A stretch of DNA of 25,421 nucleotides, taken from IMG/VR virus record IMGVR_UViG_3300032233_001217, positions 1-25,421 of that record. One strand, 5' to 3'. Below are positions 2,454 through 25,421 of the stretch, piece after piece; positions within the stretch are counted from its first letter, which is position 1, and each line of letters opens with the position of its first letter. The position numbers and the translations under genes are program-made. The notes below the pieces were generated by a model. The model did no database searches and had not been told where the DNA came from. It was given only the letters and a program-made list of their open reading frames with translations. The DNA comes from a virus. Lineage: Duplodnaviria > Caudoviricetes.

Positions 2454-2762
2454 TCAAGATGTCATTCGCCACACCCGCTCCGGTCGCCCGCTCGCTGACG
2501 GCCTGGTCGTGCCCGTCGTCTCCACCAGCCCGGCACGCGAAAGCCCGTGCATGCGACGCGCCACCTGCTGCTCGCTCAGCCCACAGCGGCCGGCAATCTC
2601 GTCCTTGGTTCCCGGCCCAGCGGCCAGCGCCTCGAGGATCTTCCGCTCATGGTCGCCGCGAAACTCGCGGGCCATGGTGCCGGCGATCTTCGACGTCACC
2701 GGATCGGTGCTGCGGAAGAGCGGCAGCGCATCCATAGGCGGTGTGTAGAAGTCGTTGCTCAT
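2454..2762 (-). CDS. Winged-helix HTH DNA-binding protein
   Basis: RSTDPVTS leader, then ILEALAAGPGTKDEIAGRCGLSEQQVARRMHGLSRAGLVETTG...SGRPERVW. ATGA overlap with the HNH gene stop. Confidence 0.75.
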   Translation of the reverse strand: MSNDFYTPPMDALPLFRSTDPVTSKIAGTMAREFRGDHERKILEALAAGPGTKDEIAGRCGLSEQQVARRMHGLSRAGLVETTGTTRPSASGRPERVWRMTS

Positions 2763-3352
2763 GTCACGGCCTCGCGCACGAACGAGTTAGCAAACGCAAC
2801 GCCATCACAAATCACGGATGGCTCGTTATCGCTAGACAGGAGCTTTCTCCACCCTTGGTTCCACGCCTTTTTGGCGTGGCTCCTTGATGGCGGCGGCACT
2901 GGCTGACCAATCCAGCTCTTGGCACGCTCGGCTTCAATAGCCAGCACTATGCGACGAGCCTTTTCGTAGGCCGCAGAAGCAGACTCAACGTCAGCAAAGC
3001 TGCCGAGATACAGAGTGCATCTCCAAAGACAGATGTGAGAAAAATACGGTAGCGTCCCTGGCTTTGGCTGAACGCCTTCTGGCAAACGTCCGCCGTTTGA
3101 TCGCGCGCGAGACCGACAGTTCAGCGAGCCAGTCGCCGGACGCAAGTTCTCAATGCGGCAGTCAAGCTTGTCTCCGTTGATGTGGTCCAGCATTGCCGGG
3201 ACATCTCCATCATTTGCCAAGCCCCAGACGTAACGGTGCAGCGTGACCATGCGCCCGCCGACTCTGCTGCAGGCATAGCCAACACCGTTCGGCCTCCAGC
3301 GATAACGCAGCACTTGTTCCCGGTATCGCTCATCAATAATGAAAACGCTCAT
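2759..3352 (-). CDS. HNH endonuclease with AP2-like DNA-binding domain
   Basis: LHRYVW...LDHINGDKLDCRIENLRPAT (HNH_3-like) followed by GV...YLGSFADVESASAAYEKAR (AP2-like). SD AAGGA upstream. Confidence 0.85.
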   Translation of the reverse strand: MSVFIIDERYREQVLRYRWRPNGVGYACSRVGGRMVTLHRYVWGLANDGDVPAMLDHINGDKLDCRIENLRPATGSLNCRSRARSNGGRLPEGVQPKPGTLPYFSHICLWRCTLYLGSFADVESASAAYEKARRIVLAIEAERAKSWIGQPVPPPSRSHAKKAWNQGWRKLLSSDNEPSVICDGVAFANSFVREAVT

Positions 3353-3767: not shown

Positions 3768-3934
3768 CAGTCGGACTCCTCCTGTGCGGCGATCTGCTCG
3801 AGCACCGGCAGGGCCGCCTCGCACAACGTGCGAAAGGACAGCAGCTCTTCGGCAGGCGTCTGCTCGTTCTGGGACAGGGCACGCCGCATCACCTTGGCGA
3901 TGGAGCGGGCAGCAACTGCGTTGGCGTCGCTCAT
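3767..3934 (-). CDS. Hypothetical protein (55 aa)
   Basis: Below the ORF-track cutoff. MSDANAVAARSIAKVMRRALSQNEQTPAEELLSFRTLCEAALPVLEQIAAQEESD. ATGA overlap upstream and TGATG overlap downstream fill the gap exactly. Confidence 0.65.
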   Translation of the reverse strand: MSDANAVAARSIAKVMRRALSQNEQTPAEELLSFRTLCEAALPVLEQIAAQEESD

Positions 3935-4728
3935 GCGTGCACCTTGCCTTCGTTCTCAAGGAACTCCACGCGGGCGTGGATCTGGTCGAGCAGCTCGTCG
4001 GCCTGGAACGGCGTGAACGCCTTTTCCTTGAGCCGCTTGTCGATGTGGCCACGCATGCGGTCGAGCTTGGCGATGTCACGCTCAGCGTCGATCGCGGCCT
4101 TGGCCACCTCGTACGGGTCGACTCGCTCCTCAGCCGGCTGCGGCGTCGCAGGACGCACGACGACCGGCTCAGAAGTCACCGGTGCCGCCGGGTAGTCGTG
4201 GGCCTCTTCGGCCGTCACCATGCCACGCAAGGCGTCTGGGAAAGCGTCCCGCAGGGCGAAGCCCCTTGCCCGCATCTGGAGCATGCGGCGCGGGTACTGG
4301 GTCCACGGGCCGCTTTTGCCCCACAGCCCAGCTTTCTTGGCGTCGGCCACGGTGAACTTCACCACGGTGGGCGTCGGGTAGCCACGCCGCTTTGCAGTGC
4401 ATGTGGCCACCATCTGCTCGCCGTCGCCATCCACCGACTCGGTGACGTACTCGCAGACCGGGCTGGCCTTGACCACGGCCAGGGCGGCGTCTCCGAAAAT
4501 GCTCGGCCGCCCGTTTACCACGGCAATCGACTGCAGGGCCTGCATCGGCGACAGCCCGATCTCGGCCCCGGCCTGGATCGCAAGCACGCAGCTGGCTGGC
4601 TTGCCTTTGAAATCCTTCGGGGCGAAGTCGGACGAGGCGACCATCTCCCCAAACTTCATCGCATCGGCCATCGTTGCGAGGGCCAGACCCCTCGCAGGCG
4701 TCGTTGTAGTGCTTAGCTCCGTGCTCAT
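3931..4728 (-). CDS. RecT-like single-strand annealing protein
   Basis: APKDFKGKPASCVLAIQAGAEIGLSPMQALQSIAVVNGRPSIFG...FTVADAKKAGLWGKSGPWTQYPRRMLQMRARGFALRDAFPDALRG is the familiar phage RecT-like pattern. Start at ATG 4728 (SD AAAGGA). Confidence 0.85.
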   Translation of the reverse strand: MSTELSTTTTPARGLALATMADAMKFGEMVASSDFAPKDFKGKPASCVLAIQAGAEIGLSPMQALQSIAVVNGRPSIFGDAALAVVKASPVCEYVTESVDGDGEQMVATCTAKRRGYPTPTVVKFTVADAKKAGLWGKSGPWTQYPRRMLQMRARGFALRDAFPDALRGMVTAEEAHDYPAAPVTSEPVVVRPATPQPAEERVDPYEVAKAAIDAERDIAKLDRMRGHIDKRLKEKAFTPFQADELLDQIHARVEFLENEGKVHA

Positions 4729-4730
4729 GT

Positions 4731-4855
4731 CGTGTCCTTTCGCGTTGCGTCCTTTGTGAAAGCCGGTGTCCCCGTCCTGGGTAGCCGGCAGCTGCGTCCT
4801 TGCGTTGCCCGGTTCCACCGGGGCTCCGTGTTCGTGGTGGTTGATTCCCTCTTGC
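4731..4855 (-). ncRNA. GGA-rich leader / CsrA(RsmA)-binding RNA candidate
   Basis: Eight GGA in 114 nt (4735-4848), several in short hairpin loops: CCCGG-TGGAA-CCGGG, GC-AAGGAC-GC, CCC-AGGAC-GGG. AGGAC recurs four times. Confidence 0.45.
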
Positions 4856-4917
4856 GCGGTGTGGGTGAGTGGCTCCCCACAGGGCGGGGGCCGAGAATAA
4901 AAAGGTTGGGGGGGGGG

Positions 4918-4933
4918 GCAAGTCTCGTGCCAA
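4918..4933 (-). promoter_or_regulatory. Sigma-54 (-24/-12) promoter
   Basis: TTGGCACG-AGAC-TTGC matches the YTGGCACG-N4-TTGC consensus. It is intergenic and oriented toward the recT operon. Confidence 0.6.
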
Positions 4934-4953
4934 ATGCCCCGCAATTTCTGCGG

Positions 4954-5993: not shown

Positions 5994-6926
5994 ATGACCC
6001 TGCGAGAACTACTGCTAGACCGAGTCGCGCCGCTGAAGAATCTGTGCGACAGGACCGTTGCCATGTACGAGGCAACGCTCGACCGATTCCGCGACTTTCT
6101 GGGCCACGAGCCGACCGTCGATGATCTCGACGACCTGACCGCGGCCAAGTTCCTGCGCTGGCGTCAGACGACGCAGCATAGCAGGTTCAAGATGATTAGC
6201 CCGGCGAGCCTCGCAAAAGACTCTGCCCACCTGCGAAGCCTGTGGACTTGGCTCGCCAAAAAGCGATGGAAGAAGACCAACGGCGAGCTGCTCGAGTTCC
6301 CCGACTACGCCCGTCCCCGCGTCCCCAAGCCCCGCCCTGTGGCCTACACGGTCGACGAGCTCAGCGCCCTGGTCAGGGCCGCCCGGCATCGCAAGGGCCT
6401 CGTGGCGGGCAAGCCGGCCGCCTGGTACTGGATGACAAAGTTGCAGGCCATGTTCCAGACTGGCGAGCGGATCGGGGCCGTGCTGGCCCTGCGGTGGCGG
6501 GAAGTCGACTTAGAGCGGTGCACGATCACGTTCCTGGCAGCAACACGCAAGGGCCGCCAGGAGACCATTACGCGGCAGATCACGCCCGAACTGGCTCGTC
6601 AGATGGCTGTAAGCCAAGGCCCGCCAGACAGCCTCGTATGGCCTTGGTTGGAGGATCGCCAGATCCTGTCCTGCTACGCCAGCCTGAAGGTGCTGTGCCG
6701 CACGGCAGGCGTCCAATACCACCCGTTTCACTCGATTCGCAAATCGACTGCGTCATACCTCAAGCTGGCCGGCAAGTCGGCCAAGAAGCAGCTGGGGCAC
6801 AGCAGTGAGGAGATGGCTGAGACGCACTACTACGACGAGCGGATAACTGGGGTGGAATCGGCCCTCGACTTCCTGCCGACGCTCGACCTGACCGGGCCTG
6901 GCAAGCGGGGAGGCGACGCGGGGTGA
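5994..6926 (+). CDS. int: Tyrosine recombinase / integrase
   Basis: Catalytic set TGERIGAVLALRW (R), TRK (K), FHSIRK (HxxR), LGHSS (H), THYY (Y), with a SAM-like N-terminal domain. SD AAGGAG. Confidence 0.9.
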   Translation: MTLRELLLDRVAPLKNLCDRTVAMYEATLDRFRDFLGHEPTVDDLDDLTAAKFLRWRQTTQHSRFKMISPASLAKDSAHLRSLWTWLAKKRWKKTNGELLEFPDYARPRVPKPRPVAYTVDELSALVRAARHRKGLVAGKPAAWYWMTKLQAMFQTGERIGAVLALRWREVDLERCTITFLAATRKGRQETITRQITPELARQMAVSQGPPDSLVWPWLEDRQILSCYASLKVLCRTAGVQYHPFHSIRKSTASYLKLAGKSAKKQLGHSSEEMAETHYYDERITGVESALDFLPTLDLTGPGKRGGDAG

Positions 6927-17642: not shown

Positions 17643-18406
17643 TGCCACACCTTTTCCGGCGGCTTGCCGCCACGGTCCCAGAAGTCACCAGGATGCTGGA
17701 CCAGCCCACGCATGTTCTGGTCGGGCCACTTGAACTGAACCTCGGCATGTCCGATGCACACCCGCGTGCAGACGCCTGCCTTCACGCCAGCCTTCTCGGC
17801 CACCTGCCAGAAGTGAATGTCGTCGTCGATCCGCTCTGGACCCCACTTGCCTTCTTTGTCGGGCTTTCCCAAAAACCACGGATGCGGCATCCGCTTGAGT
17901 GCCGCTGCCCTAATCATCGTGAATCCGAAGTGGGCCGTGTTGGCTTTGACGATGTTGTGCAGGATAAACCAGTCACGCGGGGCCTCGGCCATTCGCTCGC
18001 CGTTGGTCGCCGCCATGGTGAACAGCGGTTCGTCTGTGCGACGCTTCATCTGCAACGCCGCCACGACGTCGTAGTCACTGGCCGTGGCGTACTGCAGCAG
18101 GCGTGGAACCGCGTCTGCTTCAAAGATCGTGTCGTAGTCGAGCGTCAGAATCCACAGCGGTGGCTCCTTCGGATCGTCGTCGAGCTCGACCATGTCGGTG
18201 AGCACACGTTCCAAGCATTGGCCCCAGAAGGCACCCTCAAGCCGTACCGGCGAGATGCCGTACGGGATGAGGCCCCGAGGCCAGCAGAACATGTGGTCTT
18301 GCCAGCCGAGCCGAGGCACGGACATGGCACACATGACACGCACTGGCCCTGAGCCAGTGTCAAGCACGGCAGGCTTCACGCCCGCCACAGGTGACGCCGC
18401 GCCCAC
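17639..18406 (-). CDS. GT-A fold glycosyltransferase (family 2-like)
   Basis: WILTLDYDTIF (DxD), DVVAAL, AHFGFTMIRAAALKRMPHPWF, DDDIHFW, VCIGH. SD GAGGAGG. Confidence 0.75.
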   Translation of the reverse strand: MGAASPVAGVKPAVLDTGSGPVRVMCAMSVPRLGWQDHMFCWPRGLIPYGISPVRLEGAFWGQCLERVLTDMVELDDDPKEPPLWILTLDYDTIFEADAVPRLLQYATASDYDVVAALQMKRRTDEPLFTMAATNGERMAEAPRDWFILHNIVKANTAHFGFTMIRAAALKRMPHPWFLGKPDKEGKWGPERIDDDIHFWQVAEKAGVKAGVCTRVCIGHAEVQFKWPDQNMRGLVQHPGDFWDRGGKPPEKVWQ

Positions 18407-18937: not shown

Positions 18938-20221
18938 TCAGAGCCGCAGCGAGACAACGGGGCCGGCGTTGGTCGCGTCGCCGATGTCAGAGGTGACCAC
19001 GTCGAACCGGACAGACGCCACGAAGTAGGTCTGATCGAACTCGATGTAGCGGTCGGTAGAGGCACGCACGGCGATCTGCGACCGCAGGCCGAAGTGCGTG
19101 GACATCTTCATGTCACCGAACAGGGCAATCACCTGGTCGCTGGTCGGGGCCGTCCGCATGCTGTTGTTGAAGTAGACGGGGTAGCCGAGGAACCGACCCT
19201 CGCTGACGCCGCCAGCGATCTCGGCAGCCGACAGACCCTTCTCAAGCATCAGGGGCAGCATGCAGGTGCTGTAAACCTGCGGAGTCACGTACCAAGCCGC
19301 GGTGGGCCGGGCGTAGCTGGGCAGCTTGCCGACCGTCTCGACGAAGTCGTCGATGGTCAGGGCCGAGAGCGAGCTCTCGCCGGAGTCGTTCTCGCCAGCA
19401 AGCGACTCGTTCTCAAACCGCCACTGGATGCCACGGATGCCGCCGTGCGTCGAAGTGCCGTCACCAGCGAAGCCGGCGTCGTCGATCTTGCGGCTTAGGG
19501 CCAGGGCGAACTCCTGAGCCACGAGGCCGGCCAGGTCGATGACCGAGTCTTCGATCAGGCTGTTGGGCACGCGGGTCGCCACGCGGCAGTCCTTCGTGGA
19601 CAGCAGCACGTTGTCGGTCGCCATGTCACTGGCGGTCGTCTCGGTGTTGTCGTTCACGAAGTAGGCAGTGTTGCCGCCAGTCCGACGCGGGATGTAGAGC
19701 GTGTTGCTCGACATCGGAATCACGTTGGCCTGCTGCGGGATCGCGGTGAACTGATCGACCAGGCGGATCACGGTCGAGGCGAACGTCTCGGGGATGAACA
19801 CCGCACCCTTGGCGTTGTCGTTGCTCGACAGCGCCCGCTCTTCGACGTTCCGCTCGTACCACGCACGATCCTCAGTGCGGTTGAGCAGGAAGCCGCGAAT
19901 CCAACGGCCGCAGACCTCGGCATCGTCAGCCGACGCGAAGCCACGGACCCGGCCGACGTGCGGCATCTTGCGAGCGACGGGAGCCTCGGCCTCAACGGCC
20001 ACGGGCTTGGCCGACGCGGCGACCTTGCCACGCAGGCTGGCGATCTTCTCGGCGATGGCGGTTTCCTGGGCGAGCCGCTGCTCGAGCTCGGCCGCCTCGG
20101 CGGTCAGCTTCTCGACGTCGGCCACCTGGCCTTCGGTGCGATCCTCGACCTTGGACAGGTCGTCGAGCATGGCAGCCACAGCGGCTGCACGGTCTTGGAG
20201 CTTGTTGAGCGAGGCGGCCAT
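18938..20221 (-). CDS. Major capsid protein, HK97 family (with N-terminal coiled-coil delta domain)
   Basis: GAVFIPETF...VPNSLIEDSVIDL...GDG...GRFLGYPVYFNNSM...LFGDM...RFD. ATG 20221 with SD AAGGGAG. Confidence 0.93.
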   Translation of the reverse strand: MAASLNKLQDRAAAVAAMLDDLSKVEDRTEGQVADVEKLTAEAAELEQRLAQETAIAEKIASLRGKVAASAKPVAVEAEAPVARKMPHVGRVRGFASADDAEVCGRWIRGFLLNRTEDRAWYERNVEERALSSNDNAKGAVFIPETFASTVIRLVDQFTAIPQQANVIPMSSNTLYIPRRTGGNTAYFVNDNTETTASDMATDNVLLSTKDCRVATRVPNSLIEDSVIDLAGLVAQEFALALSRKIDDAGFAGDGTSTHGGIRGIQWRFENESLAGENDSGESSLSALTIDDFVETVGKLPSYARPTAAWYVTPQVYSTCMLPLMLEKGLSAAEIAGGVSEGRFLGYPVYFNNSMRTAPTSDQVIALFGDMKMSTHFGLRSQIAVRASTDRYIEFDQTYFVASVRFDVVTSDIGDATNAGPVVSLRL

Positions 20222-20263
20222 CCTTGGCACTCCCTTATCGGGTGACAGATCCGTGTCTGTCAC
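20216..20263 (-). promoter_or_regulatory. CsrA-type GGA hairpins in the capsid translation initiation region
   Basis: Perfect 8-bp stem GTGACAGA-CACGGA-TCTGTCAC (20242-20263), AGGGA in the SD, and GCC-AAGGAT-GGC overlapping the ATG. Confidence 0.45.
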
Positions 20264-20293
20264 TCACGCTACGGGACGCAGGCCGCTAAGCCA

Positions 20294-20482
20294 TCAAGGT
20301 TGTTTGTACGGTACAAAAGACCGACGCCACACAGTCAGCGCTGGCACGATGGCCTTGGCCTTGTACTCGCACGTCTGGCACTCCAAATACCGCACCTGAC
20401 GCTGTTCGTCGAGTGGGTGACTGGAGCGTGTACGGATGCGTCCCTTCCCACATTTGGGGCAGGGATCACCGGGCTTTGCCAC
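20294..20482 (-). CDS. Ogr/Delta-like zinc finger protein
   Basis: CPKCGKGRIRTRSSH...RQVRYLECQTC. GTG 20482 with SD AGGAG. Confidence 0.7.
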   Translation of the reverse strand: MAKPGDPCPKCGKGRIRTRSSHPLDEQRQVRYLECQTCEYKAKAIVPALTVWRRSFVPYKQP

Positions 20483-20627
20483 GCATGAAGCTCCTGAGTC
20501 GCGCGGCTCGAAGCCGCATGGATGCCTTGACGACGTCGGGTCCGACCTCGCGTGGCATCGACTCAGGTGTAGCTTGCTCGGCAAGCCACAGCACGGGCGA
20601 CATCATGGCCACTACGAACGCTCTCAC
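20466..20627 (-). CDS. 53-aa orphan paralogue of the prohead protease C-terminal segment
   Basis: Not in the ORF track. MRAFVVAMMSPVLWLAEQATPESMPREVGPDVVKASMRLRAARLRSFMRGKAR aligns with protease VAMRSYQAWLEEQ and AAIRLTSARLKSFVR. GTGA coupling to the protease stop. Confidence 0.55.
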   Translation of the reverse strand: MRAFVVAMMSPVLWLAEQATPESMPREVGPDVVKASMRLRAARLRSFMRGKAR

Positions 20628-22018
20628 GATTGATTGCCGTACACCAAGTCCTTGACTTCATCTGCGGTTGCCAAGGCGCTATGTCCCTTGGAATCAGTCA
20701 GGGTCACCATGGAAACCCAACCCTTGCCAACCTTCTTCGTGACGGTTGGGCCAACCTTGTAGCCCAGTTGCTTAAGTGCAGTCGTCGACTGATCGATGGT
20801 CAGTCGCTTCTTGTCCTTGGGGATTTTCACGTTGTGCTTTGCAGCAGGTGCTTGCAAGCCTCCAGGGCCAGGGCCAGCACCAGGAGCAGGGCCACCGCCA
20901 TCACTGCCGGACCCGCCGGACTCGCCAGACCCGGAATCTCCAGATCCACCACCCTTCCCGCACGTGTTGCCTGATTGAAAGCCGCCGCTGCCAGTACCGC
21001 AGTTACGTACGAACGACTTCAGGCGAGCAGACGTCAGCCGAATGGCGGCACTCATGGCCGCCGCCGCTTGCTGCTTGCGTGCTTGCTCAGCCACGCCATC
21101 AATCTTCTCGCATCCACATCGCTGCTCTTCCAGCCATGCCTGGTACGACCTCATGGCCACCGCAGCAGACGTAGACGGGTACGCCGGCTGCACCACTGGT
21201 CCCATCTCAAAAAGTCCAGCGGCTTCCACGACCTCTCGGATCGCCTTGCCTGTCTCGTCTGTCGTGAAGCGCTCGCCGCCACGCTGCGAAACCGTGAACG
21301 AAAAGCTGCTGCCACGCAGATTTTTTGAACGCACGAGCGCAAGGACATCACGGCCAGCCTGCGTGTCTGGCGGCTCCACGACGTAACTGATGCCGCGATC
21401 ATCGACGCTGATCTCAAGCGTGCCCGCAGACTCGCGTCCGAGCAGCCAGTTTGGGTCGTGGTTGAAATACGACACGATCTCGCCCTTGCCTCGCTGGCGG
21501 CGCAGGATCTTGTCGAACGCACCGGGCATAATCCGCTCCCGGAACCCTCCCAAGTCAACGCTGAGGCGGTTGTAGGGAATCGCCAGCCCGCGAATGACCT
21601 CGCGGCCGTTCGACCTCGTCTCGACGACGATCTCGTCATCAGCGTCAAAGCACACGTCACGCTTTTCAATCATGCCTTCCATGGCATTACTCCTGTCGTC
21701 TTCGCGGTCTAGTTGTTCGACCTTCCTGGCAGACCACTGCTGGCCAGCGTCACCCGACCACAGCATCCACGCCACGAAGCCCGGCGTTTCCTCGCCTTGC
21801 TTGTTCCAGTCGGGCCGCCTGTCGGACTCGTGCCGGGCGAACCACGCATTCATCTCTCGAACGTGGTCCTCTGTGAGCTCCTGGCGGGCAGCGATGATGT
21901 TGGCACGCCGGACGGTCTCGGGCTTGAGCCCGTCGCCGCTCTTGCCTTCGTTGTGCAGCCGCAGCCCCGTACGGGCCGCCTCTGCCATGCCGGCCGTGGG
22001 CTTAAGGTCAACCGCCAT
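20624..22018 (-). CDS. HK97-family prohead protease (S78) with extra N- and C-terminal domains
   Basis: Core GLAIPYN...DLGGFRERIMPGAF...FNHD..LLGR...GSSFSF...EMGPVVQPAYP. About 110-aa N-terminal domain (AWFARH...GFVAWMLWSGDAG). C-terminal CGTGSGGFQSGNTCG, Gly linker and basic domain. Confidence 0.88.
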   Translation of the reverse strand: MAVDLKPTAGMAEAARTGLRLHNEGKSGDGLKPETVRRANIIAARQELTEDHVREMNAWFARHESDRRPDWNKQGEETPGFVAWMLWSGDAGQQWSARKVEQLDREDDRSNAMEGMIEKRDVCFDADDEIVVETRSNGREVIRGLAIPYNRLSVDLGGFRERIMPGAFDKILRRQRGKGEIVSYFNHDPNWLLGRESAGTLEISVDDRGISYVVEPPDTQAGRDVLALVRSKNLRGSSFSFTVSQRGGERFTTDETGKAIREVVEAAGLFEMGPVVQPAYPSTSAAVAMRSYQAWLEEQRCGCEKIDGVAEQARKQQAAAAMSAAIRLTSARLKSFVRNCGTGSGGFQSGNTCGKGGGSGDSGSGESGGSGSDGGGPAPGAGPGPGGLQAPAAKHNVKIPKDKKRLTIDQSTTALKQLGYKVGPTVTKKVGKGWVSMVTLTDSKGHSALATADEVKDLVYGNQS

Positions 22019-23246
22019 TTGGAATGTCCCCCTGATCGTCTGCCGGCTGATCAGCAGGAGCGACGTCGGCAGGCGGCGCTGCCGGCTGAGCGTCAGGCGC
22101 TGGCGGCGTCTCGTCTTCCGGCATCGGCCCGAGGTTCTCCTTTTGCCGCACTTCCTCGGGCGTCATCCAGCCATTCCGAACGGCAACCTCGTACGCCTGG
22201 TAGCGGGTCGTGATGTCGCTACGCAGCAAGCCCTCGACCAAGAACTCCGCGTACAGCTCGTCATCGTCGCCGATGATGTCCCGCTCGATGGCACCTTCGA
22301 TGCGACGCAGCCAGGGCTGGATGGTGAACTTCTCGAAGCTCACCATCTCGCTGGCAAGGTTGCCCCACGTGGCCCGGCCCAACTCCTGCACCATGTGTGG
22401 CGGCATCTTCCAGATCCGGCACACGGCCAGCAGCGCCTGCATCCAGAGCTCGGCCAGTTGGCTCTCTTGGTTGGTCGCCGAGACGGTATCGACCTTGAGG
22501 CCGTTAGAGAGCACCGCCACCTCGCCGGCCCGAGACGGGCCACGGTGACGGTTGTTCCACTGCTCACGCAGCTGCTCGCGGACCTCGCGTGGCAGGGCCT
22601 GCTCGGTGTGCAGCACCACGCCCGGCTGAGCGTTGTTGCGGTAGAACGTGGCGGCGTACTGCTCAAGCGACCGGGCCAGGCTAATCGCGTCCTTGCCGAG
22701 ATCCACGGGCACGGCACCGTTAATGCCGTCGAACGACAGCCACCGCACGTGCATGATCTGGTCGTCGCGGTAGACCACCTGGCGGCCAGTGCCCGGCACG
22801 CGGTACAGGTACGTCAGCGTCTTGTCGTCTTCCTGCCTCACCTCCATGCCAGACGGGTGCAGCGGGTGCAGCTCGGTCACGCTGCCGGCCGCACCGGGCA
22901 CCTTGAGGTTGTAAGCCGACCCGTAGAAGCCCAGGTGCAGGCACATGCCCTCTACCCACTCGTAGCGTGTCTGCCACGAGTTGGGCCGCTTGGCCAGCAC
23001 GCGGTACAGCGGCAGGTTGCGGGCTCGCTCGACTCGCTCATCATCAATCCGGCGGTACAGGTGCAGCGGCAGGCTGGCGACGGTCTCGGCGATCACGCGA
23101 GCACAGGCGAACCAGATGCTCGTCTTCATCGCCGTCTCAGGCGTGACCCGCACGCCCTGGTCGCCGGCGAGCATCACCAGATCGTCCCAGCGGCTCGTCC
23201 GCTCCTCGAGCCACTTGATCTCAGGGACGGCGGTCTCTGTGCTCAT
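22008..23246 (-). CDS. Portal protein, HK97 family
   Basis: ACARVIAETVASLPLHLY...RPNSWQT...IMHVR..SFDGINGAVP...N.AQPGVVL...PWLRRIE...GWMTPEEVRQKENL. Confidence 0.95.
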   Translation of the reverse strand: MSTETAVPEIKWLEERTSRWDDLVMLAGDQGVRVTPETAMKTSIWFACARVIAETVASLPLHLYRRIDDERVERARNLPLYRVLAKRPNSWQTRYEWVEGMCLHLGFYGSAYNLKVPGAAGSVTELHPLHPSGMEVRQEDDKTLTYLYRVPGTGRQVVYRDDQIMHVRWLSFDGINGAVPVDLGKDAISLARSLEQYAATFYRNNAQPGVVLHTEQALPREVREQLREQWNNRHRGPSRAGEVAVLSNGLKVDTVSATNQESQLAELWMQALLAVCRIWKMPPHMVQELGRATWGNLASEMVSFEKFTIQPWLRRIEGAIERDIIGDDDELYAEFLVEGLLRSDITTRYQAYEVAVRNGWMTPEEVRQKENLGPMPEDETPPAPDAQPAAPPADVAPADQPADDQGDIPNGG

Positions 23247-23250
23247 AGCC

Positions 23251-24591
23251 TCACCAGAAGGAGATTTCCGGCATCTCAGTCGGCTTCTGCTGCTCGCCCA
23301 TGTGGATGCCGCACGCCATGGCCAACGCGACCGACCCGTCGATACGCTCGGTGCTCTTGGCCTTGGACAGCTTGACGTTACCCGAGGCGTCCATCTGCAC
23401 GGCCGCGTTGCCTAGTTGCCAGCCTAGCAGCCTGTTTCCCGCAAGCCGCAGTTTTCCCTCGACTAACAACGCCTCGAGACGCTTGGTCGGCGAGCTCATC
23501 GACGCGAACCCTTGCCCGAACATCACGACCGGCAAGCCCTCGCCGGCGAGCTGCTGGGCGAGCATGGTGGCGTTCCATCTGTCGATGCCCAGCCCGCGAC
23601 AGCGGTGCCTCTCGCAGAAGGCCATGATGTCGCGCTGAATGACGCTGTAGTCGGTGCTGCGGCCGTCAGTGATCGTCAGCCACCCATCGCGGGCCCACTG
23701 CGAGTAGGGCACCCGGTCTTCACGCTCGCGCCGGGCGGCGTTCTCGCCTGGAATCCAGAAGTGTGCGTAGACGTCGACGTGCCCGTCATCGGCCGGGAAC
23801 CACGCCACAAACGCTGACGTGTCGAACGTGCTGGCCAGGTCGAGCCCGGCCCAGAACTCCCGGCCCTCGAGCGGCTCGGGCGGGCCACCCATGCACGTCT
23901 CGATCTGGTCGGGCCGCACCCACTTCACATCGGTGGTGGTAGGCACGTTGAGCCGATACCGCAGGAAAGATGAGAGCTTTGTTGCCGAGTTGGCCGCCTC
24001 GCGGCAGTCGGCTGCGAAAGACTCCTCGCTGATGGTCTCGCCCAAAGACGGATTTGCACGGTGCCAAACTTTGGGCGACTGCCAGTCATCCTCCCGGTCG
24101 GCAGCGTAGATGCACCCGAAGAAGCTCGGGTCGAAGGTCGGGTCGGCGATGCACCGCTCGGCGTAGTCGTGCTGCTCCCACCAAAGGTGTGACTTGTTGA
24201 ACTCGCCGGCCGTCGTGATTGACAGCACCAGCGGCTGCCGCCGGGCCGCACCGCCGTATCGCAGGGCATCCCACAGCCGGCGGTCCCCGCGCTGGGCGTG
24301 CAGCTCGTCGAACAGCAGGCAGTGAATGTTGAGACCCTCGGCCCGGAACGCATCCGCCGAGAGCACCCGATAGAACGAGTTGCTGGCCCGGTGAATGATG
24401 CTCTTCCGGCTGTCGACCACCTCGAGCACCTTGCTCAGCGCTGGCGACGAGCGGACCATCGACGCCGCCTCGCGGTAGATGATCCCGGCTTGCTCGCGGT
24501 CGCTGGCCGCACCGTAGATCTCGGCCCCCGGCTCGCCATCTGCCAGGAGCACGTACAGGCTGATGCCAGCCAGCAGAGTTGACTTGCCGTT
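23251..24591 (-). CDS. terL: Terminase large subunit, 3' segment
   Basis: The frame is open upstream of the ORF-track GTG and reads NGKSTLLAGISLYVLLADGE...AASDREQA...LLFDELH (Walker B)...ITTAG...GLDLAS...RIDGSVA. It lacks the N-terminus and first half of Walker A. Confidence 0.92.
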   Translation of the reverse strand, partial: NGKSTLLAGISLYVLLADGEPGAEIYGAASDREQAGIIYREAASMVRSSPALSKVLEVVDSRKSIIHRASNSFYRVLSADAFRAEGLNIHCLLFDELHAQRGDRRLWDALRYGGAARRQPLVLSITTAGEFNKSHLWWEQHDYAERCIADPTFDPSFFGCIYAADREDDWQSPKVWHRANPSLGETISEESFAADCREAANSATKLSSFLRYRLNVPTTTDVKWVRPDQIETCMGGPPEPLEGREFWAGLDLASTFDTSAFVAWFPADDGHVDVYAHFWIPGENAARREREDRVPYSQWARDGWLTITDGRSTDYSVIQRDIMAFCERHRCRGLGIDRWNATMLAQQLAGEGLPVVMFGQGFASMSSPTKRLEALLVEGKLRLAGNRLLGWQLGNAAVQMDASGNVKLSKAKSTERIDGSVALAMACGIHMGEQQKPTEMPEISFW

Positions 24592-24634
24592 GCGTCCCCT
24601 TGGCCCCCACGACTTACGCCGCAGGGGCCAAGGG
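24589..24634 (-). other. 46-nt hairpin insert interrupting the terL Walker A motif (candidate translational bypass element)
   Basis: AAG AAA AAT [CCCTTGGCCCCTGCGGC GTAA GTCGTGGGGGCCAAGGG GACGC AAC] GGC AAG TCA ACT. Removing 46 nt restores IPKKNGKST. Confidence 0.85.
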
Positions 24635-24904
24635 ATTTTTCTTCGGTATCTCGATGTATGCCTGGCGGTACTGTCGCGTACCGTCCGGCTTACACCGGCC
24701 GAAGATTTCTCCTAGGACGTACCTCTGCCATGGGAGCAGCAGGAAAGGCTGCCCGGCCGTCTGGCCTTTGGAGTGCTTGAGCACCTTCTCGAAGAAGGCG
24801 TACACCCGCTCGGCCTTGGCTTTGTCGAAGCCGGGCCGACTCTCACCCGTGGGCGGTGAAGAACTCTTCAAGCTCGTCTTTTTTGACTTCGACTTGCGTG
24901 GCAA
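24635..24904 (-). CDS. terL: Terminase large subunit, 5' segment (start uncertain)
   Basis: DKAKAERVYAFFEKVLKHSKGQTAGQPFLLLPWQ..LGEIFG...RQYRQAYIEIPKKN is the typical Terminase_1 N-terminus. Without recoding it ends PLAPAA-stop at 24614. Candidate starts are TTG 24904, TTG 24871 and GTG 24805. Confidence 0.85.
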
Positions 24905-25310
24905 GTTTCGTCCTCGACGACGGGGTCAGACCGAACTCGCTTAACAGCGACGCCTTCTGCGAGACGAGCGACCGATACATCGGCCCGGCCGGGTTTGGCT
25001 TCACGCCTCCCAAGTCGGTGTGCATCACAGCGCCGCCGGCCCGCAGCTGCAGCAGGCACGACTGCTCGGCCGAGTGCACCTCGCACAGCGTGGCCAACGC
25101 CTCGCCATCGCCCAACGTCAAGACTCCCATGCGGGTCAAGATGCCGGCGAGCTCGTGCCACTTCTCCACGGCGACCTGGTCCACCTCGAGCCGCTTTGGC
25201 ATCGGCGGAATGCCAGGCGGCAGGCTCGGCTCGACCTTGCGTTCCCCGCGATCGGTTCCCTCAAGAATCTTCAGAGCGGTGGGCTTGGGTCTGCGGCCGG
25301 CTTTAGCCAT
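24843..25310 (-). CDS. terS: Terminase small subunit, P27 family
   Basis: GRRPKPTALKILEG...AVEKWHEL...GVLTLGDGEALATLC...NPA...EFGLTPSSRTKL. SD TAAGGAG. Confidence 0.92.
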   Translation of the reverse strand: MAKAGRRPKPTALKILEGTDRGERKVEPSLPPGIPPMPKRLEVDQVAVEKWHELAGILTRMGVLTLGDGEALATLCEVHSAEQSCLLQLRAGGAVMHTDLGGVKPNPAGPMYRSLVSQKASLLSEFGLTPSSRTKLATQVEVKKDELEEFFTAHG

Positions 25311-25331
25311 GGCGGCCTACTCCTTAGCGGC

Positions 25332-25347
25332 ACAAATAGCGTGCCAA
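25332..25347 (-). promoter_or_regulatory. Possible second sigma-54-like element upstream of terS
   Basis: TTGGCACG-CTAT-TTGT has one mismatch at -12 and shares ATTTGGCACG with the 4918-4933 site. The predicted +1 would fall within the SD, so this is uncertain. Confidence 0.3.
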
Positions 25348-25421
25348 ATCGTGTGAGAAAAACCCCGGCGATTTCGATGCCGCGCACGCGCGGTGGCCCT
25401 GACGAGGTTTATATCGGTTCA

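Follow-up and report, generated by a model that had tools for sequence, protein, structure and literature searches.

We found that the large terminase gene (terL) of the phage fragment analysed here (the window, 25.4 kb, 62% GC, about half a genome) is split inside the codons of its Walker A motif, the ATP-binding loop, by a 46-nt insert that folds into a long hairpin. At least 39 distinct versions of this insert (38 of an Asn or Gly class plus one in locus L660), 46-51 nt long and occurring in all three reading frames, were recovered from terL genes that were 45-96% identical to that of the window. Judged from these sequences, ribosomes probably skip the insert by programmed translational bypassing and would so produce a 535-aa terminase with an intact P-loop. 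Bypassing is favoured because two conserved copies of a codon move together with the hairpin.

The minus strand of the window encodes terS, terL, portal, protease, capsid and tail genes. The small terminase gene terS (24843-25310, minus strand; PF05119, E 7e-18) overlaps the start of terL. The 5' coding part of terL (24635-24904, minus strand) comprises 90 codons from a putative TTG start, assigned by comparison with the intact homologue P0001, to the residues YIEIPKKN, and matched PHROG terL families. The 3' coding part (23251-24588, minus strand) continues in the +1 frame with 445 codons from GKST onwards and matched PF03354 and PF20441 (TerL_ATPase and TerL_nuclease). The two parts add up to 535 aa, which is the length of P0001 and bears out the size of about 535 aa that the preliminary description had expected upon skipping. 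The downstream portal, prohead protease and major capsid genes (18938-23246, minus strand; Pfam matches) were uninterrupted. Further away, a gene for an HNH_3 endonuclease (2762-3352, minus strand) adjoins one for a Dam-family methylase (1279-2436), and none of the fetched loci contained a homologue of this endonuclease. A tyrosine integrase was encoded on the opposite strand (5994-6926, plus strand), and a RecT gene was located at 3931-4944. With integrase and RecT, the window could represent a temperate phage, whose recombination functions could shift the cassette.

On the minus strand, the codons CCG AAG AAA AAT are followed by the 46 nt of the insert (24634-24589), of which the last codon is AAC, and then by GGC AAG TCA ACT. 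The A-rich Lys-Lys codons AAG AAA (24638-24643) precede the predicted take-off codon AAT (Asn, 24635-24637), and the stem opens at the next base, as it does in all three classes. The hairpin (24597-24634, minus strand) is made up of a 5' arm (24634-24618), a GUAA loop (24617-24614) and a 3' arm (24613-24597), which form 17 uninterrupted pairs; an 18th pair would be U·G with the last base of AAT. Within the loop, at codon 7, lies an in-frame TAA (24614-24616, minus strand) that would terminate non-skipping ribosomes. The spacer GACGC (24592-24596, minus strand) leads to the predicted landing codon AAC (Asn, 24589-24591, minus strand). The interruption of Walker A, the 17-pair stem directly after AAU and the loop with its UAA had all been described before and were confirmed. 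The minimum free energy of the insert was -37 kcal/mol (z -6.8), a value reached by none of 200 shuffles, and the opposite strand reached merely -26 kcal/mol. No other uninterrupted stem in the window reached 15 pairs, and a search against Rfam gave no match within window positions 23000-25421.

The insert is real, and an assembly artefact was excluded. Run X1, which may be the source of the window, contained contigs that crossed it with 0 differences, and divergent contigs from two other studies (X2 record 10 and X3 record 17) bridged it without a large gap. A contig from a third other study (X11 record 7) also covers it, with one flank of only 8 nt. Other contigs in the same runs skipped 47 nt; because they differ at many further positions, these represent insert-free strains. 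Two runs that may be of RNA had no coverage of the insert.

Our searches yielded at least 142 overlapping locus records with at least 48 distinct contexts. When the downstream protein of the window served as query, the site was seen in 75 of 80 loci, 73 of them intact and 2 with an insert. A scan that used only the flanking codons gave at least 29 matches, 27 of which were homologous hairpin inserts in terL, and further inserts came from hairpin-based and additional context scans. A protein-only search in another clade, which was blind to the insert, returned 47 loci with the site: 30 carried an insert, 14 had none and 3 had an intein at GK|S. In L660, whose terL also contains an intein, a related hairpin sits between two CCG codons, four codons further upstream. 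Scanning for an AAY...AAC gap pattern gave 71 matches, all by chance and none a terL insert. A scan for upstream-class inserts returned the L660 contig again and nothing else new among the 120 matches listed, and a Pro-class core scan gave no terL among the 120 matches listed. Hairpin-core scans of metagenomes and GTDB found mostly unrelated palindromes, with terL accounting for 9 of 117 and 1 of 120 matches listed. Strong sites of the element model occurred once each in four of five records searched and not in the fifth, and none of the five had a strong second copy in another gene.

Other hairpins were also encountered, and long ones occur elsewhere in four phage records. A near-perfect 25-bp palindrome outside terL, superficially like the hairpin core, recurred in the metagenome scan (L305, L307, L318 and others). 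Two related records, L806 (minus strand position 670) and L812 (minus strand position 17793), had an identical 18-bp hairpin outside terL in an apparently intergenic position. In a search for the host, the best matches reached 47% across 401 Planctomycetota genomes and 44% across GenBank phages; among 30 Planctomycetota loci, the 29 with a readable motif had no insert. The sole GTDB bin with an insert carried seven rpoB-family matches, and one tRNA-Trp was found in four phage records.

The check that had been suggested on related terL genes showed that the inserts recur with covarying stems, vary in length and keep a matched codon, even where the insertion point is shifted. In 33 aligned inserts 98.8% of cells were paired, and 6 of the 17 pairs showed double-sided changes. 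None of 500 shuffles had as many paired cells, in a test that is inflated by relatedness, and slid controls reached 40-52%. The first 15 pairs across the family comprised 502 Watson-Crick, 77 G·U and 2 A·C pairs, and the sense strand was the more stable one in 37 of 38 inserts. This excess of G·U on the coding strand shows that selection acts on the structure of the mRNA strand and argues against a polymerase jump on a template hairpin. Loops were 4-7 nt long, and the GNRA type that had been taken for a feature of the element was restricted to the Asn class. The core stem opened right after the codon, with uninterrupted extension into the codon mostly by 0-1 bp and by 3 bp or more in few inserts. 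Neither flank pairing nor a bulge-helix-bulge was present in the consensus fold. A downstream barrier stem was unsupported, the region being less structured in insert-bearing genes (p 0.009). The A-run was also considered as an antisense terminator, but a terminator scan found none at the site.

The amino acid encoded directly before the stem was repeated past it, as Gly in 34 inserts, Asn in 4 and Pro in 1. The spacer between stem and repeat was 5-8 nt long (11 nt in L660, the Pro class). A hop between matched codons over a hairpin, as put forward in the preliminary description, is strongly supported by the comparison, but not as an Asn-specific process, given that just 4 of 39 inserts use Asn, all four with the match kept. 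Positions 1-2 of the Gly class were GG in 34/34 take-off and 33/34 landing codons, with variation at position 3 and in the spacer. Over the whole family the first two bases matched in 38 of 39 pairs, and 31 of 39 were same-tRNA pairs. Under standard wobble rules the other 8 of 39 codon pairs are not readable by one tRNA; seven cross wobble classes (e.g. GGC to GGA), and L290 goes from GGC to TGC. The landing triplet of L290 and L631 (G004), TGC instead of GGN, might reflect two-of-three landing or a dead allele. The sequence GG was absent from all 34 Gly spacers (2.6 expected, P 0.04), 18 of which contained AA; Asn-class spacers were without AA. L660 has a decoy CCG, in frame, at the base of its stem. 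The SD-like AAGGGGA reported ahead of the landing codon is present in the window, but it lies mostly within the stem, is variable and is not conserved in the family, which had no conserved spacer motif that could act as a landing-codon SD.

The A-site codons after take-off were GTC in 22 cases, GCC in 9 and others in 7, and GTC, GCC, CCC, TCC, CGC and CTC each make up at least 0.6% of window codons. With neither a stop nor a rare codon in the A site, the usual bypass trigger is missing. The loop stop is not the trigger either, because 18 of 39 inserts are without it. An in-frame stop was found in 13/13 inserts of 3n length and in 8/26 others (Fisher p 3e-5, with members that are not independent; 5:0 in independent pairs by a tree-based comparison, p 0.06). 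The stop-less inserts were 47, 49 or 50 nt long, never 48 or 51. Stops in all 3n inserts together with their absence from 18 of 39 point to the stop as a safeguard.

Upstream of take-off, the Lys-Lys codons were AAA AAA in 32 of 37 distinct contexts, against a background of 19% AAA among the Lys codons of the same genes. In the protein-only sample GAG GTG preceded the insert in 19/19 distinct contexts versus 3/7 insert-free ones. We infer that this SD-like sequence, 12 nt before take-off, may have a role. The window further has an upstream stem-loop (24652-24697, minus strand; -27.7 kcal/mol, z -5.5) that ends 14 nt before the take-off codon. Compared with synonymous recodings, it was stable in 4/4 Asn-class genes (z -2.9 to -3.8), which comprise only three distinct sequences and show no double-sided changes. 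The same region of insert-free close relatives had z above -2.1 in all 15 scored (20 of 23 rows covered), and a single one of the 34 Gly-class genes had an upstream stem-loop at z of -2.5 or below. By analogy, the Asn-class stem-loop is a candidate counterpart of the 5' SL of T4 gene 60. The insert-free allele L009, with a Cys codon, retains part of this stem-loop (z -2.1) and has possibly lost an insert recently.

Several lines of evidence bear on the function of the split gene. All 85 downstream ORFs that end within their locus were at least 400 aa long, and 27 more were cut by locus ends. The dN/dS comparison of both halves that had been recommended gave 0.04-0.25 over 22 pairs; for the window terL against close relatives it was 0.05-0.16, and 0.05-0.07 for the 3' part. 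These values indicate purifying selection on both terL halves. In each of three records rated 96-99% complete, a single TerL nuclease match and a single strong element site were present; by this measure near-complete relatives (n = 3) are without a second terL. The Walker A motif is tightly conserved, with 113 of 120 intact homologues matching it. In annotations, hairpin-split terL genes appear as truncated or broken, although they are probably functional.

On the tree we counted 15 changes of insert state, of which well-supported branches force at least 10 (quick and FastTree trees, with distant outgroups dropped for the count). Over the 30 codons upstream, the window shares synonymous codons with L012 (28/29) and L167 (25/29), and downstream of the insert it resembles the insert-free L001-L005. 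This upstream and downstream likeness speaks for transfer in the form of a recombinant patch, and recombination appears to carry the cassette between terL alleles along with about 90 nt of the sequence upstream. LAGLIDADG-containing inteins were present at terL GK|S in L651, L655 and L660, at a distance of one or two codons from where the hairpins sit. They occurred in 0/30 loci with Gly inserts versus 3/17 others, which is a weak hint that insert and intein might be mutually exclusive. A large zinc-finger HNH protein (304-331 aa), present beside a small cos-type HNH, is encoded directly before terS in L012 (747-1658) and L537 (2596-3588, minus strand), and also in the insert-free L015 (74% identical). 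A linkage to homing nucleases was unsupported, as the large HNH of two insert lineages also occurs in L015.

The following ribosome steps were modelled on T4 gene 60 and on the A-site docking of which stem-loops are capable according to the accessible text of PMC7282821. The ribosome would slow down with peptidyl-tRNA-Asn on AAU and the 17-bp stem in the A site. The tRNA would then release, in the Asn subtype possibly aided by folding of the upstream stem-loop behind the ribosome, while decoy codons would be concealed within the folded hairpin. Re-pairing would take place at AAC, the first match past the stem, and decoding would restart at GGC. Ribosomes that melt the stem would halt at the loop UAA, and a terminase with a broken P-loop would not be produced. 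Against bypassing speak the missing A-site trigger, the 8 of 39 pairs that are not same-tRNA, the lack of a conserved SD, an upstream stem-loop that is neither general nor supported by double-sided changes, the modest link of stop and frame in independent pairs, the L660 decoy and a possible origin of the matched codons as target-site duplications. The idea that bypassing limits or regulates the packaging enzyme found no support. A wider proposal, on which we are evenly divided, is that the insert is a portable, structure-driven bypass cassette unrelated to T4 gene 60. Its hairpin alone would drive a hop of about 50 nt from the preceding Pro, Asn or Gly codon to the first match, and recombination would carry it through the terL intein hotspot in a large group of uncultured phages, where it possibly shields the site from homing endonucleases. 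The 39 natural variants in an essential gene separate codon identity, spacer length, loop stop and upstream stem-loop, so that it is directly testable whether the hairpin alone triggers take-off.

The explanation that comes closest is a micro-intron, cut and ligated from the mRNA by an unknown protein, with the repeated codon as a relic duplication or a guide to the junction. It would account for the mRNA-strand covariation, the free length, the stops in 3n inserts and the eight imperfect codon pairs, and would amount to an unknown route of bacterial mRNA splicing. We nevertheless regard it as unlikely: the junction letters vary by class (AA, GG, CC), both codon copies are conserved at positions 1-2 where splicing requires one, and neither the consensus fold nor Rfam provided a splicing structure. 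There were no RtcB or RNA_ligase matches in 5 phage records, although a host enzyme is possible. Removal could also occur in DNA, if a polymerase slipped over the hairpin and some progeny genomes supplied the terminase. Insert-free alleles in the same runs, with joints that skip 47 nt, and the 15 state changes would fit such excision. It is made very improbable by the identity of the skipping contigs as other strains, by repeats that are just 2-3 nt long, in codon phase and free at the third position, and by retention of the insert in long-lived clades.

Translation of the insert by frameshifting or stop readthrough, adding 15-17 residues to the P-loop, has hardly any probability. The +1 frame is open through the insert of the window, but L012, which differs by one base, has a TAG there. 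A frameshift cannot be general because 25 of 39 inserts, that of L012 among them, close the resume frame; the insert lengths also span all three frames, and intact homologues keep the Walker A motif. Just as implausible in our view are two separate polypeptides, made by termination and re-initiation and then assembled. Annotators do place downstream starts in P0092 and P0024, database proteins that begin inside or after the hairpin. We consider these to be mis-called starts of split terL genes. Two polypeptides are also at odds with a break that lies within Walker A and with the lack of a conserved start codon near the junction, and would leave the codon matching without explanation. We hold it to be next to impossible that the insert arose in assembly or that it disables terL in defective phages. 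The absence of an insert from nearly all relatives found with the window protein (73 of 75) would agree with inactivation; independent studies nevertheless hold the insert, the dN/dS values are low, the complete downstream ORFs are intact and the insert is common in another clade (30 of 47 loci). The +1 frameshift with 15 added residues and the inactivation that had been listed as alternatives at the outset are now largely excluded.

Bypassing remains the preferred reading, and we compared the insert with known systems on the basis of the accessible text of the sources cited. Long hairpin gaps in terL were not described anywhere in the literature searched, which left most subscription papers outside its coverage, and the word "terminase" occurs 0 times in the accessible text of bioRxiv 10.1101/2022.08.31.505936. 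Group I or II and bulge-helix-bulge introns do not match inserts of 46-51 nt with no Rfam match and no flank pairing. The TerL1-a/b P-loop inteins (PMC5050341) are mobile elements inserted at the same Walker A hotspot. Inteins undergo in-frame translation and splice as protein, whereas the terL insert is a non-coding RNA structure with a frame break or a stop in 39/39 cases.

A terminase is also the gene affected in Streptomyces phage Hau3 / StrepC.1, where a frame-breaking non-coding block is a candidate for UUA bypass (PMC10732093). Judged from the printed Hau3 g6/g7 sequences (...KGWG / KDPL...; PMC10732093), this break too lies in the Walker A region. That block is 7-10 nt long, with a UUA trigger and a link to host development, and concerns 3 of 100 genes (PMC10732093). 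In contrast, the terL insert measures 46-51 nt, forms a hairpin, has no rare codon and does not start with UUA. The byps of Magnusiomyces capitatus mitochondria are closer in size (27-55 nt) and tolerate two-of-three codon matches; they are present in 81 copies in 12 genes and have an unused A-site codon (PMC5009743, bioRxiv 10.1101/2022.08.31.505936). The terL insert differs in being single-copy per genome with a common A-site codon.

Efficient long-distance bypassing in bacteria was limited to T4 gene 60 and its homologues in the account of PMC5009743, which treats further counterparts as a long-standing question. The 50-nt bypass cassette of gene 60 (bioRxiv 10.1101/2022.08.31.505936; PMC5009743) shares the matched codons with the terL insert. 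Among gene 60 homologues take-off shifts by one codon with matched pairs, and codon pairs are always same-tRNA (bioRxiv 10.1101/2022.08.31.505936). The terL insert resides in another gene, and most of its gap is taken up by one GC-rich 17-bp stem, which begins at the A-site codon. Unlike gene 60 it has no A-site stop or hungry codon, no conserved mini-SD and no established MobA-like nuclease, and 8 of 39 pairs are not same-tRNA. By analogy, the terL insert would work like T4 gene 60 while standing outside that family, because it has no A-site stop, mini-SD or linked nuclease.
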